This document shows, one piece after another, positions 10,818 to 20,771 of a stretch of 35,462 nt of DNA (its first letter is position 1; every line of letters starts with the position of its first letter). The translations under genes and the position numbers were made by a program. The notes under the pieces were generated by a model that saw only the letters and a program-made list of their open reading frames with translations, made no database searches and was not told where the DNA came from. Source of the DNA: a virus (taxonomy: Duplodnaviria > Caudoviricetes); the IMG/VR virus record IMGVR_UViG_3300047279_000034, positions 1 to 35,462 of that record. The stretch is one strand, 5' to 3'.

Positions 10818-10996
10818 AAATGCACAAGTCAAAAACAATGATATTTTCATTATTGTTAGTGATTTTTGGTGCTTTATTTGATAATTTTTCTTATGTCCAA
10901 AACAGTATTAATCCAAAATATTATGGCTTTATCCTTATTGGGATTGGCGTTATTGTTGCTGTATTGCGCTTTGTGACTTCTAAGCCTATTGAGTAA
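10814..10996 (+). CDS. Putative holin (2 TM)
   Basis: Two hydrophobic helices in 60 aa; ATGA overlap; lysis cassette. Confidence 0.6.
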   Translation: MKMHKSKTMIFSLLLVIFGALFDNFSYVQNSINPKYYGFILIGIGVIVAVLRFVTSKPIE

Positions 10997-11403
10997 TGTT
11001 TCCTTTGACAATCCTTACTTATGTCAGAATTGGGGCTATTGTTATTGGTATGCTTTTTTCTGTGTATATTGGTTATCGCTATGAGCATAATAATTTTATG
11101 GGATATAAGGCAAAAATTGAGTTGTCTACAAGAGTTGAGGAACAACGAACCCAAAATGCAACAGACGAAATCAGGAAAGTAAAAGATGCTCAAATACGCA
11201 CTATTAACTCTCAGCTCGTTGATGCTATTAGCAGCTTGCACAACCGTTCCAGTAACGCCACAAAAACCATCAATGGACAGGATTGCAACGGAGCAACCCT
11301 TTCTGCCACCGATGCAGAATTTCTTATCAGGCAAGCAGCAAGAGCCGACCAAATAAGAGTTGGATTACAGGCTTGTTATAACCAATACGATGCTATCAAA
11401 TGA
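10996..11403 (+). CDS. Rz: Inner-membrane spanin (Rz-like)
   Basis: N-terminal TM, coiled coil and C-terminal Cys residues; contains an embedded lipoprotein ORF. Confidence 0.8.
   Translation: MFPLTILTYVRIGAIVIGMLFSVYIGYRYEHNNFMGYKAKIELSTRVEEQRTQNATDEIRKVKDAQIRTINSQLVDAISSLHNRSSNATKTINGQDCNGATLSATDAEFLIRQAARADQIRVGLQACYNQYDAIK
11186..11356 (+). CDS. Rz1: Outer-membrane lipoprotein spanin (Rz1-like), embedded in the +1 frame of Rz; not in the ORF track
   Basis: MLKYALLTLSSLMLLAAC-TTVPVTPQKPSMDRIATEQPFLPPMQNFLSGKQQEPTK; lipobox LAAC, Pro-rich mature part, AGGA upstream. Confidence 0.85.
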   Translation: MLKYALLTLSSLMLLAACTTVPVTPQKPSMDRIATEQPFLPPMQNFLSGKQQEPTK

Positions 11404-12268: not shown

Positions 12269-12607
12269 CTAAACAGTAGATTTTTCAATAAAACGGTTAT
12301 TTGCTTGGTTAGTGCGCCAAATGTCCACTCTGAGCTGTGCGCCTATGAGTTGATACCTGAGTGTCTCCTCTATCTCAATCGCCTCTCTAAGACCCTTTAA
12401 AAGCTCTTGGTACTCTGTTCTAGCATAAGCATCTCGCTCTTGTGCTGCCATAGTTTCAACTCCAGCACAAAAAGCCTCTTGCATGAGTAATGCCTTTTTT
12501 GACTTTCTAAACTCCTCTAGGTAGATTCTTTCTGATTTCGCCTTTGCAAATAATTTAGCGTTTTTAAGTAGAAAATCTACTGCTGCATTAGGGTTAATTT
12601 CTTCCAT
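12269..12607 (-). CDS. Hypothetical coiled-coil phage protein
   Basis: GAGG RBS; 112 aa helical protein; part of the leftward operon. Confidence 0.7.
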   Translation of the reverse strand: MEEINPNAAVDFLLKNAKLFAKAKSERIYLEEFRKSKKALLMQEAFCAGVETMAAQERDAYARTEYQELLKGLREAIEIEETLRYQLIGAQLRVDIWRTNQANNRFIEKSTV

Positions 12608-12614
12608 GTTTTCC

Positions 12615-13631
12615 TCAATTCAAAGAATTTTTGATTGTTAATAAGACTTCTTCTTTTTCTTTTAATACCAGCTCTACATTCGATTGCTGCACTTGCATTA
12701 ATTCTAGGTATAAACCCTTATCTGCTTTTAAATCTTGATACAACTCCAGCAGCTCATCACCATTCTTAATAATCTGTCTTGGATGAATGTTGTAGCCACT
12801 TAAATCAATCGTCTTTTGGCAGCGATAGTCATAGACCAAAAGCGTGTTATTCATCAAACACTCATAAAAGCGGTTTGCCATAAAAGCGTAGTTTTCATGC
12901 GTATGCTCATCTTCAAAGTAAATAGACAGCATGAAGTCTTTGAGTCTTAGACCTACTGGTTCAAACATATCGCATTTAGAACCATCCCAAACCAGCTTTT
13001 CTATAAACTTAGCGGTAATACCTGCTGATTGGTATTTCAGGTGATTTCTACGGTTAGAACTGAGACGGTAGGAGACATTGTTGTAGTCTTTCATGTCTTT
13101 AATACGGTTCTTTCTAAATGTTCCGTAGTACAGAATCTCGTCTTTAGATTGATTGTCTTTGGTCTCTAGGTACTTGCTTTCGTCAAATACCAAAGTATTG
13201 AGATTGACCGTATACCAGTTATTAATCCAATCGTTTAAAGTTTTTTCGTGTACTTTCTTGCCTAAAATCCAGCCTCTATAACCTGAACGAGGATTGTTGC
13301 AAATCATGTCGTACTGTTTGCTGTACTTGACAGTCCATTTTCTGAGCAAAATGTTATCTTCAACATCGTGGTCATTCATCATCCAAAACACTTTAGCGTC
13401 AGGATTTCGGTCAAGAATCTCCAAATAAGCGTTGTATTTCATATATGGAGACGCATAGACGCAAATGATTGCATCGTAAGACTTGTCTATAACGCTAGGA
13501 ATATGCTCTGCATGACTGATGAAGTCGCAGCCTAAGTAATCCCTTAATATCACAGCGTTTTTGACATGAACCATTGTGTAATTAGATTTAATCTCTCTTT
13601 TTTCACAAGACTCAATGATGAGCGTTCTCAA
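12615..13631 (-). CDS. GT-B glycosyltransferase resembling T4 DNA beta-glucosyltransferase
   Basis: Colinear motifs VFWMMND, ILYYGTFRKNR, FMANRFYECL and IKNGDELLELYQDLKADKGLYLELMQVQ; similar length; TTG start overlaps the upstream TGA. Confidence 0.75.
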   Translation of the reverse strand: MRTLIIESCEKREIKSNYTMVHVKNAVILRDYLGCDFISHAEHIPSVIDKSYDAIICVYASPYMKYNAYLEILDRNPDAKVFWMMNDHDVEDNILLRKWTVKYSKQYDMICNNPRSGYRGWILGKKVHEKTLNDWINNWYTVNLNTLVFDESKYLETKDNQSKDEILYYGTFRKNRIKDMKDYNNVSYRLSSNRRNHLKYQSAGITAKFIEKLVWDGSKCDMFEPVGLRLKDFMLSIYFEDEHTHENYAFMANRFYECLMNNTLLVYDYRCQKTIDLSGYNIHPRQIIKNGDELLELYQDLKADKGLYLELMQVQQSNVELVLKEKEEVLLTIKNSLN

Positions 13632-13786
13632 AATGGCGCATCCTCAAAGACAACCTTAATTCTAGGAATCTTTACCTTAACAAAGCTCCAGCCGTTCCTG
13701 ATGCCAACAATCTCTTTGGCTTCTTGCAAAGAACGCACTTTACGCATCAATTCACCTGATTCATCGTATATGTAGTATCTAAACAT
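13628..13786 (-). CDS. 52 aa hypothetical protein ending FEDAPF; not in the ORF track
   Basis: MFRYYIYDESGELMRKVRSLQEAKEIVGIRNGWSFVKVKIPRIKVVFEDAPF; fills the gap in the operon exactly. Confidence 0.7.
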   Translation of the reverse strand: MFRYYIYDESGELMRKVRSLQEAKEIVGIRNGWSFVKVKIPRIKVVFEDAPF

Positions 13787-13792
13787 CACTTA

Positions 13793-14287
13793 TCAGCCTT
13801 TAAAGTTAATCTTGTCTAGGTAATGATTCCCTACATCCATGTCTTTAGGCATAGGAATACCGTCATCGTCAATTACAAAAGTACGCTTATCTAGCTCTCC
13901 GATGATGTTTTTACGAGTTTTAAGCAAGTTTTTAGGACTATGCAACTCATTTAATCCCATTTCAAACAACAGCTCAGATACCTTCTTATCGGCTAAAGCA
14001 AAGAAAGTAGTCTTGTTATTGCCTTTAAAAAACTTCTCAGGATTGGTACACATATCGAAAAGATTGCGTAATTTGTCGTTTTGATGGATTCGTACCGTTA
14101 CTTGGTCATTTTTGCTAGGTTTAAGACCAAAGTGAAATCGGCAGTAAAACTTGCTTTCTCCGTTAGTTCCAGCAGACAAAGTACCTGTTAATCCACAACC
14201 ATAGGCAGAACAAACTAAAGGCTGCGCTTGTGATGGATTTTCTTCTTGTCTCTCAGTCTTAACAAATCCTTTTTTAAATTGGCTCAT
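13793..14287 (-). CDS. Zn-finger-containing protein downstream of the replication initiator
   Basis: CSAYGC...FYCRFH; ATG 14287 forms an ATGA overlap with the initiator stop. Confidence 0.65.
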   Translation of the reverse strand: MSQFKKGFVKTERQEENPSQAQPLVCSAYGCGLTGTLSAGTNGESKFYCRFHFGLKPSKNDQVTVRIHQNDKLRNLFDMCTNPEKFFKGNNKTTFFALADKKVSELLFEMGLNELHSPKNLLKTRKNIIGELDKRTFVIDDDGIPMPKDMDVGNHYLDKINFKG

Positions 14288-15057
14288 TTGTTGTAGTTCC
14301 CATCTATGATTTTTTGAAAGTTTGCTGGTAAAAGAATCCATTGAAGGTCAGGTTTCCAAGACCTATCTTTAGACTCAAAGCCTTCTGATAGTTTTGTATC
14401 TGTAGCGATATAGCTAAAGAAACCATCCCACCATTCAATTCCATCTTCTTTTGTTTTGTAGCCGTCAGGAGAGTATTGAGACGGTTTAGAGGCTTGAATC
14501 CATCTGCTTTTCATATTGGCTTGTCTTGAACCTTCCCAAGTTCTAGGCTGCGTTAAATGAGGCAAGTGCTTTTTCCATAAAAGTAAAAGAGAATCATAAG
14601 GACATGGGGGAAACTTAGTTTCTCCTAATGATGGTTTTAATTGGGTATTGGGTATTGGGTCTTGGGTATTGGGTAGCATACCATTCGCATCATGTTCGCA
14701 TTGCGTTTGCATTGCGTTCGCATCACTTTCCTTATGTTTCCTACTCCAGCGAGCATTAGCAGAAGCCCTTGCACTCTCTGATTTACCATAAATGTGAGCA
14801 AGCTCTTTATCGCATCTATGGTGTATATACCCTTCTTCAGTTAAAGAAAAGAAATCAGTAAGAACATTTTGAAGTGCTTGCTGTTCATCATTAGTGCGAA
14901 TACTATGCGAACGCATCAATTTCGCAAGGTCATTGCTTAGTGGTACTTCTTCCAAATAATAAGTATCTAAAAGCTGACGATAGATTCCATGCTCTAGCAA
15001 CGATAAATGAGAAGTATCTTTACGATAATCTCCAATGTTATGAGGGTAATGGTGCAT
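14284..15057 (-). CDS. Replication initiator, DUF1376/YdaU family
   Basis: MHHYPHNIGDYRKDTSHLSLLEHGIYRQLLDTYY; C-terminal WKPDLQWIL..NFQKIIDGNY; internal iterons. Confidence 0.85.
   Translation of the reverse strand: MHHYPHNIGDYRKDTSHLSLLEHGIYRQLLDTYYLEEVPLSNDLAKLMRSHSIRTNDEQQALQNVLTDFFSLTEEGYIHHRCDKELAHIYGKSESARASANARWSRKHKESDANAMQTQCEHDANGMLPNTQDPIPNTQLKPSLGETKFPPCPYDSLLLLWKKHLPHLTQPRTWEGSRQANMKSRWIQASKPSQYSPDGYKTKEDGIEWWDGFFSYIATDTKLSEGFESKDRSWKPDLQWILLPANFQKIIDGNYNK
14641..14725. repeat. Putative replication origin: 5 x 7 bp (TTGGGTA) plus 4 x 11 bp iterons (consensus approx. CGTTCGCATYR)
   Basis: Tandem repeats at 14641-14675 and 14682-14725 inside the initiator gene, as with ori in lambda O. 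Confidence 0.75.
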
Positions 15058-19743: not shown

Positions 19744-20103
19744 ATGAATGAAAATGTTGCTATGTTTGTTGCTACCCTATTCCATAGTGGCACTAATACT
19801 CACTTCTTTCATTTATCCACTAATTCTTACTCACAGCATAAGGCTTTGGGCAATTTCTATGAATCTATCATAGAGCTTGCAGATGACTACGCTGAAGCGT
19901 ATATGGGCAGATACGAGCAGTTAAAGTCGTTTCCTAGCACCTACCATCTTCCTAAAGACCCTTTAAAGTACCTAGAGTCATTAAAGACTTTTGTAGATGA
20001 AGCCAATAAAGACCTTCCTAAAGAACAAGAATTGGTCAATATCGTAGCTGAAATCCAGCAACTCATAGATTCAACTCTATACAAACTACGCTTTCTTAAA
20101 TAA
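19744..20103 (+). CDS. Dps/ferritin-like four-helix protein (DUF5856-like)
   Basis: THFFH...SYSQHKALGNFYE...ADDYAEAYMG; AAGGA RBS before ATG 19744. Confidence 0.75.
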   Translation: MNENVAMFVATLFHSGTNTHFFHLSTNSYSQHKALGNFYESIIELADDYAEAYMGRYEQLKSFPSTYHLPKDPLKYLESLKTFVDEANKDLPKEQELVNIVAEIQQLIDSTLYKLRFLK

Positions 20104-20771
20104 TGCAGCTCGTAGGCTTATCTGCTCTTGAGTACGATGAGCAGTATTACGCAGAGCATAAAGATGCTGACCTTGATTATCTTGGTCATGGTTACTGGCA
20201 AGAAGAATACGCTAAAATGGTATCTAAGGGTTTACCAGTAGATTCAGTTGTATTTGATGGTGGATGTGCTTGTGGCTCAATCCTCAATGGCTTTAAAAAG
20301 CTAGGATTTAAAACGATAGGTATGGACTTATCGGCATACATGATTGAGCTAGGAACAGAACACTTTGACAACGATGAACTTATTTGCGGTTCTCTTACTA
20401 ATATCCCTTTACCTGATAATTCTGTCGATTTAGTACATTCTGCTCAAGTCCTAGAGCATATTCCTGAAGAACTCATGGAAGATATTGTGAGTGAGTTTGA
20501 GCGTATTTTGAAGCCAAACGGCAAGATGTTCCTATGCTTAGACGCTATCAGAGACGGTGAAACCAAAGAAATGTACATGGGAGACCCTACTCATGTAAAC
20601 ATACAAAGAATTGAATATTGGTCTAAATTATTTAAAAAAGGTAATTTACTATTCGATGTTCAGAGTTATAATAATTTTGTGCGCTCTGAGTTTAAGCCAA
20701 CAGCAGAAGTAGATGCTAACTTCTTTGAGGCTTATCCTTATTGGAGCGTGTTTACTCTTATTAAGGAATAG
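20103..20771 (+). CDS. Class I SAM-dependent methyltransferase (small-molecule/glycan type)
   Basis: VFDGGCACG, GMDLS, LPDNSVDLVHSAQVLEHI, RILKPNG. Confidence 0.9.
   Translation: MQLVGLSALEYDEQYYAEHKDADLDYLGHGYWQEEYAKMVSKGLPVDSVVFDGGCACGSILNGFKKLGFKTIGMDLSAYMIELGTEHFDNDELICGSLTNIPLPDNSVDLVHSAQVLEHIPEELMEDIVSEFERILKPNGKMFLCLDAIRDGETKEMYMGDPTHVNIQRIEYWSKLFKKGNLLFDVQSYNNFVRSEFKPTAEVDANFFEAYPYWSVFTLIKE

Follow-up and report, generated by a model that had tools for sequence, protein, structure and literature searches.

The window, that is, the whole stretch of DNA analysed here, is a complete phage record of 35,462 bp with direct terminal repeats and a CheckV completeness of 100%, as the first-pass annotation had assumed. 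It carries genes for Cro, a DUF1376 initiator, Sak, YqaJ and RusA together with terminase, portal, capsid and lysis genes, and none of the 48 ORFs scanned matches a DNA polymerase. On the minus strand, at 12615..13631, lies an ORF of 338 aa with a TTG start that, judged by the ORF itself, its predicted fold and profile alignment, encodes a BGT-like GT-B glycosyltransferase (GT). TTG rather than M20 is taken as the start because homologs open with the same N-terminal motif. The gene lies downstream of the DUF1376 replication initiator gene (14284..15057, minus strand) and its start overlaps by 4 nt the TGA stop of a 53 aa ORF (13628..13789, minus strand), in agreement with the earlier description of a translationally coupled gene in the replication region. 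Given that in relatives the same 53 aa ORF precedes a TAGT gene, it is not specific to GT and was ruled out as its partner. The initiator is the upstream anchor of a variable DNA-modifier slot, whose downstream anchor is a 112 aa gene (12269..12607, minus strand). An unannotated gene of 182 aa that follows the initiator (13793..14341, minus strand) is shared by 7 of 83 sequences, and relatives that lack GT have it too. The GT gene is under purifying selection, with dN/dS of 0.03-0.08 in three of five pairs; of the remaining two, one is saturated and one gives 0.21 in an ungapped comparison. The protein is not basic overall, its pI being 6.6 as against 9.0 for BGT.

Two other loci of the window deserve mention. 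A lipoprotein-like ORF on the plus strand (11186-11356), nested in an Rz-like gene (10996-11403), is likely an outer spanin. A class I SAM methyltransferase gene of the small-molecule type (20103-20771, plus strand) follows a DUF5856 gene and precedes the terminase region; it was rejected as a GT partner, as it matches small-molecule families and lies outside the 70 commonest neighbour clusters.

Searched as a single sequence, GT matches no family in Pfam, PHROG, NCBIfam or PADLOC and no BGT in the PDB, and a broad profile (A2) run against PDB sequences returns nothing at E 1. The predicted structure is more telling. With the AlphaFold2 model (pLDDT 91.8) as query, the top six Foldseek matches are all T4 BGT (E 9.6e-10, TM 0.64-0.67), the D100A mutant structure being among the matches. 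VIA-align, run against 48,161 chains, places BGT first (Z 22.1, rmsd 3.2, 302 residues aligned) and AGT second (Z 19.4, rmsd 3.8, 308 aligned), followed from the third rank on by generic GT-B enzymes at Z 17.2 and downward (14-17). GT4 folds rank beneath both T4 enzymes, so that the proposed fold comparison with CgeB-like/GT4 enzymes favours BGT; PF13524, the CgeB-like/GT4 family, is weakly matched by 6 of 118 family members and is best neither by profile nor by structure. Two acetyltransferase matches, 7l7z and 7l7y (E 0.013), extend over 90 residues and were discarded in view of the structure. The sequence relation is distant: PF09198 is matched by none of the 118 members at E 0.01, although a language-model look-alike score for this family reaches 0.96 for the window GT, and an HMMER family profile aligns residues 29-338 with residues 30-349 of 1bgt at only E 0.58. 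A comparison of the GT family with T4 BGT by hhalign yields a probability of 95.6 (E 1.2e-8).

The claim that GT motifs are colinear with those of T4 BGT holds as well; all four motifs quoted earlier are in the translation, and HMMER and hhalign align them as claimed. Because the structure search ranks T4 BGT first, this likeness is more than chance. In both alignments D87 (codon 13371..13373, minus strand) corresponds to T4 D100, which we take to be the catalytic Asp; one MAFFT alignment puts D87 elsewhere. R173 and R176 (13104..13115, minus strand) correspond to T4 R191 and R195, R254 and E257 (12861..12872, minus strand) to T4 R269 and E272, and D241 to T4 D258, and all five are invariant in the 118 family members. 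The T4 residues R191, R195, R269 and E272 are presumably those of the UDP site. One family member, P0170, has its two GT-B domains in swapped order.

The family itself was defined from 819 candidates, of which 174 are homologs, and its profile was built from 91 sequences. A search with this profile yields 576 clusters at 50% identity, unnamed and almost purely viral. Members occur in 5 of 50,697 phage records, cultured carriers including Cronobacter phage S13, LPCS28 and Citrobacter phage Ci1. Plasmids gave no match, and prokaryote genomes, searched with sister-clade patterns only, gave four loci, all on MAG contigs. No published description of the family was found in the literature covered, which takes in few subscription papers. 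The accessible portions of the Cronobacter phage S13 papers contain nothing on DNA modification, and those of PMC12838424 and 10.64898/2026.02.25.707755 have no bearing on the family.

What could prime a base for such an enzyme? The first-pass annotation had recognised no hydroxymethyl-base pathway, and searches of the window bear it out: no dCMP hydroxymethylase or DNA polymerase was found (the T4 control matched), nor any TET/JBP, thymidylate-synthase-family, C5-methylase, radical SAM or 2OG-Fe(II) gene. The same picture extends to other carriers. TET/JBP was found in none of 42 GT-bearing records searched whole, of which 15 have a completeness of 90% or more, and in none of 11 further records, with the Cooper positive control matched at E 4e-8; very remote oxidases could be missed, because this control scored below the Pfam cut-off. 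PF00303, the thymidylate synthase family, is absent from 25 metagenomic records (T4 gp42 control matched), C5-methylases and N6/N4-methylases are each absent from 27 GT-bearing records, and PF13640 from 29. Cronobacter phage S13 has one strong, full-length thymidylate synthase match (E 6e-76), which we read as an ordinary ThyA. Of 29 records, 4 contain radical SAM genes. None of these belongs to the window clade, and only two records have such a gene beside or near GT: in L167 it lies directly upstream of a GT that branches within the ParB clade, and in L272 it is two genes upstream. At L167:3916-9448 two ParB-like genes and the radical SAM gene are followed by GT, then TerS and TerL. At L168:325-2003 a diverged thymidylate synthase gene (PF00303, E 2.6e-11), which may be an ordinary archaeal-type ThyA, is coupled upstream of a family member. 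Since L167, L272 and L168 have candidate priming genes nearby, some members of the family may use a primed base.

No such companion emerges in the window clade. In 83 sequences (82 loci and the window), no neighbour family recurs more often than the initiator, with 33. The co-occurrence analysis across homologous phages suggested earlier therefore reveals no shared partner, and the idea that an unrecognised protein of the window genome makes the hydroxyl becomes unlikely, because no neighbour family is common to the clade. The GT gene moves without companions across lambdoid, T4-like and other phages. A zinc deaminase was considered as a general partner and rejected; it lies upstream of GT in 24 of 83 sequences, but these belong to one phage lineage. 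In that group of large phages (L056-L082, e.g. L078:9561-9971) the deaminase gene (PF00383) is one or two genes upstream of GT.

The place that GT occupies speaks to its target. Sak served to identify 79 loci of related phages, and of these we kept the 45 with both anchor genes, dropping the 34 without them; near-identical phages recur, so that the loci are partly redundant. The slot holds a C5-methylase in 12 loci, a phrog_757 methylase in 6, Mom in 5, TAGT in 4 and GT in 3, whereas 15 of the 45 have no such modifier. Two kinds of modifier are never found in one slot (0/45), and all identified occupants other than GT belong to DNA-modifier families. GT is absent from all 20 slot relatives searched whole; Mom is present in 5 of these 20 and in none of 45 GT-bearing records. 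The exclusion of methylases by GT is not absolute, as L011 and L220 carry methylases too. A further 96 GT loci were inspected, most neighbours visually and a small number with a Pfam scan. There GT is found by itself with the initiator on one side and the helicase on the other, next to clamp genes, or flanked by two methylases; 7 of the 96 have a ParB-like partner. The TAGT found in the slot (PF20691; L377:5434-6568, L381:4805-5978, L406 and L411:2192-3343) is solitary, its small partner being encoded upstream or fused to it, and the two TAGT-bearing fragments searched hold no TET/JBP; it poses a second orphan DNA glycosyltransferase puzzle.

In a sister clade GT is part of a cassette. A ParB_N gene with a private C-terminal module of 50 aa is found in 78 of 80 loci, nearly always directly upstream of GT; the cassette, in most loci only two genes, mostly lies just before the terminase, and the main terminase large-subunit cluster is present in 54 of the 80. 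When loci were found by the 50 aa module, GT was directly downstream in 56 of 56, 12 of these being contigs outside the set that built the module. The window has no ParB_N gene beside modifier and terminase, and neither the window nor its clade has the module at E 1e-3. Mycobacterium phage Cooper has the same order, ParB, modifier, TerS, TerL, with TET/JBP as the modifier; its gp2 (L164:785-1753), annotated as queuine tRNA-ribosyltransferase, matches Tet_JBP. L011 encodes a fusion of ParB with an N6/N4-methylase. In S13, GT is preceded by a remote homolog of the ParB partner. In T4-like phages (L016:7270-8004, L303:9207-9947 and L314) a remote homolog of 245 aa, apparently with the C-terminal module twice, lies just before GT. 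The predicted complex of a sister-clade GT with its ParB partner scores 0.48, against 0.04 for the best control; contacts agree between runs to at least 87%, and the pLDDT of the partner is at least 66. Of 157 solved pairs, 116 reach the mark for such complexes, as do 2 of 215 mismatched pairs, and a score of 0.60 or less accompanies it in only 18 of the 157 solved pairs and in both passing mismatches. The model thus weakly supports binding of the sister-clade GT to its ParB partner. Taken together, the exchange of GT with methylases, Mom and TAGT in the slot and the ParB-terminase cassette of the sister clade make it probable that GT acts on DNA, as had been proposed.

Restriction sites argue against one form of this activity. 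The window contains one GATC where 99 are expected, no CGCG (19 expected), one CCGG (18 expected) and almost no ACGT, whereas fully modified T4 shows little tetramer avoidance; blanket protection of the T4 kind is therefore unlikely. The avoidance of 4 bp palindromes is alike in ten genomes with GT and ten without (p 0.24), 6 bp palindromes are avoided slightly more in the former (p 0.03), and none of 136 tetramers marks GT-bearing genomes after correction, so no k-mer signature of a target site emerges. Little 4-mer avoidance is seen in S13, G001, G032 and G033. Relatives bearing Mom (G043) or a methylase (G041 and G052) avoid GATC as strongly as the window does, and because of this GATC avoidance is compatible with a partial modification. 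Of the anti-restriction role proposed at first, then, a partial form is compatible with the avoidance data and the T4-like one is unlikely. In G041 and G052, whose methylases are of the C5 type, CCGG is not avoided and GCGC strongly is; CCGG may be the target of these methylases.

Based on sequence and predicted structure, we propose that the window GT glycosylates an unmodified base, partially, after replication and as a single gene product, a reading to which we give an even chance. GT would act alone on the double-stranded DNA of its own phage after replication, flip an ordinary base out as BGT does, at a subset of sites, and transfer a sugar from a host nucleotide-sugar, presumably a UDP-type donor, with D87 as general base and inversion at the sugar; these steps are modelled on BGT. 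As no priming enzyme was found, a canonical base would serve as acceptor. An exocyclic amine appears the best guess, cytosine N4 before adenine N6, for N4 adjoins the C5 position served by the BGT pocket; a ring N or O, or the backbone, are further possible acceptors. The modification would be partial or bound to a motif, as with Mom, and may blunt some host nucleases. In the sister clade the ParB-like partner would deliver GT late, near packaging, and the window clade would do without it. Mom modifies, alone, N6 of 15-25% of adenines according to the available text of PMC13219725, and thus offers a precedent for a lone enzyme that modifies a subset of bases. Provided that DNA is the target, we somewhat favour an activity without any priming step. 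A broader proposal, that the family glycosylates unmodified bases in one step, in ParB-dependent and ParB-independent forms, and yields a new nucleoside, for instance N4-glycosyl-cytosine or N6-glycosyl-adenine, is more tentative. Glycosyltransferases acting on an unmodified DNA base are not known to us, and none was found in the literature searched.

On the other hand, GT may be a conventional glycosyltransferase of hydroxy- or hydroxymethylpyrimidines whose handle comes from a host enzyme, from oxidative damage or from a small phage protein that escaped recognition. We hold this to be rather unlikely, yet it deserves weight: according to the accessible part of PMC13326640 every characterised DNA glycosyltransferase uses a pre-made hydroxyl, the window GT keeps the acid equivalent to D100, and the radical SAM genes near GT in L167 and L272, as well as the diverged thymidylate synthase of L168, are the kind of neighbour that it calls for. 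Against it, the most frequent neighbour family in the clade reaches only the 33 of 83 given above and is the initiator, GT moves between phage types unaccompanied, the ParB cassette mostly has just two genes, and the radical SAM genes are confined to 4 of 29 records outside the window clade.

It is also conceivable, though improbable, that the BGT-like fold was repurposed for an acceptor other than DNA, be it RNA, a small molecule, or a protein of the virion or of the host defences. The neutral pI of the window GT and the strong restriction-site avoidance would fit, generic GT-B enzymes reach Z 14-17 in the structural comparison, and about 65% of mined phage glycosyltransferases, those that lack a priming neighbour, are taken as non-DNA enzymes in the accessible text of Pyle et al. 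Set against this, the two best structural matches are both DNA enzymes, the other identified occupants of the slot all belong to DNA-modifier families, and pairing with ParB_N is obligate in the sister clade. Quite improbable, finally, is an action on DNA ends, nicks, abasic sites, backbone phosphates or the hydroxymethylated DNA of other phages. Such an activity would account for the continued avoidance of sites, T4 AGT was solved with abasic-site DNA, and GT is located in the replication module; the interchange with base methylases and Mom, however, points to modification of bases.

The characterised DNA glycosyltransferases need a hydroxylated base from a second enzyme, and orphan glycosyltransferases have been discounted as unlikely DNA-modifying enzymes. 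An orphan that swaps places with methylases and Mom makes this question directly testable. If GT sugars ordinary bases, it would represent a new DNA modification chemistry, glycosylation of DNA without a hydroxylation step, and a new route of counter-defence. It might also become a one-enzyme tool for labelling DNA, as T4 BGT became for 5hmC.

Among known systems, T4 BGT (PF09198; 1c3j, 1qkj, 1j39) is the closest. It has the same GT-B fold from end to end (Z 22.1), its D100, R191, R195, D258, R269, E272 and D283 positions are kept in the window GT, and both are phage genes of the replication region. The two differ in that they are 13-14% identical, the window GT without a match to PF09198; in that T4 has dCMP hydroxymethylase next door to BGT and the window phage has none; and in that BGT is basic (pI 9.0) and T4 avoids few sites, whereas the window GT is neutral and its genome avoids sites strongly. 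T4 AGT (1y6f), the second-best fold match, is also a DNA base glycosyltransferase, yet it is 11% identical to the window GT, needs hmC, and the motifs of GT follow BGT rather than AGT. The arabinosyl- and glycosyl-5-hydroxycytosine pathways of RB69, DLP3 and RL38J1 likewise employ GT-B enzymes that sugar phage cytosine, but as far as the accessible text of PMC13326640 goes they depend on sugar genes, a kinase and a homolog of thymidylate synthase. The window yielded none of these. According to the same text, the known DNA glycosyltransferases act on hmC, hmU or hoC.

The clusters of 5mYOX (TET/JBP) and glycosyltransferases and the ParB-dependent T-dioxygenases (10.1101/2023.12.21.572611; PMC13229309; PMC8256090) follow the same post-replicative logic; their linkage to ParB and terminase is shared by the GT sister clade, and both have ParB-dependent and -independent forms. 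Unlike the 5mYOX clusters, the GT-bearing records searched yielded no TET/JBP or C5-methylase, and ParB pairs directly with GT. Pyle et al., in the part available, consider it less likely that a glycosyltransferase modifies DNA when neither 5mYOX nor ThyS is encoded next to it. Solitary TAGT (PF20691), reported in 288 of 753 genomes in the accessible portion of PMC13216743, is like GT a predicted DNA glycosyltransferase without the expected precursor pathway and fills the slot of GT in 4 of the 45 loci; its fold is GT-A, as opposed to the GT-B fold of the window GT, and it is uncharacterised as well. Mom of phage Mu (PF25680), as described in the available text of PMC13219725, is a one-gene, partial, post-replicative modifier of a canonical base and sits in the same slot in relatives, but has a GNAT fold, uses a glycyl-tRNA donor and is unrelated to GT in its chemistry. 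By its fold GT works like BGT; if its acceptor is an unmodified base, it is categorically new.
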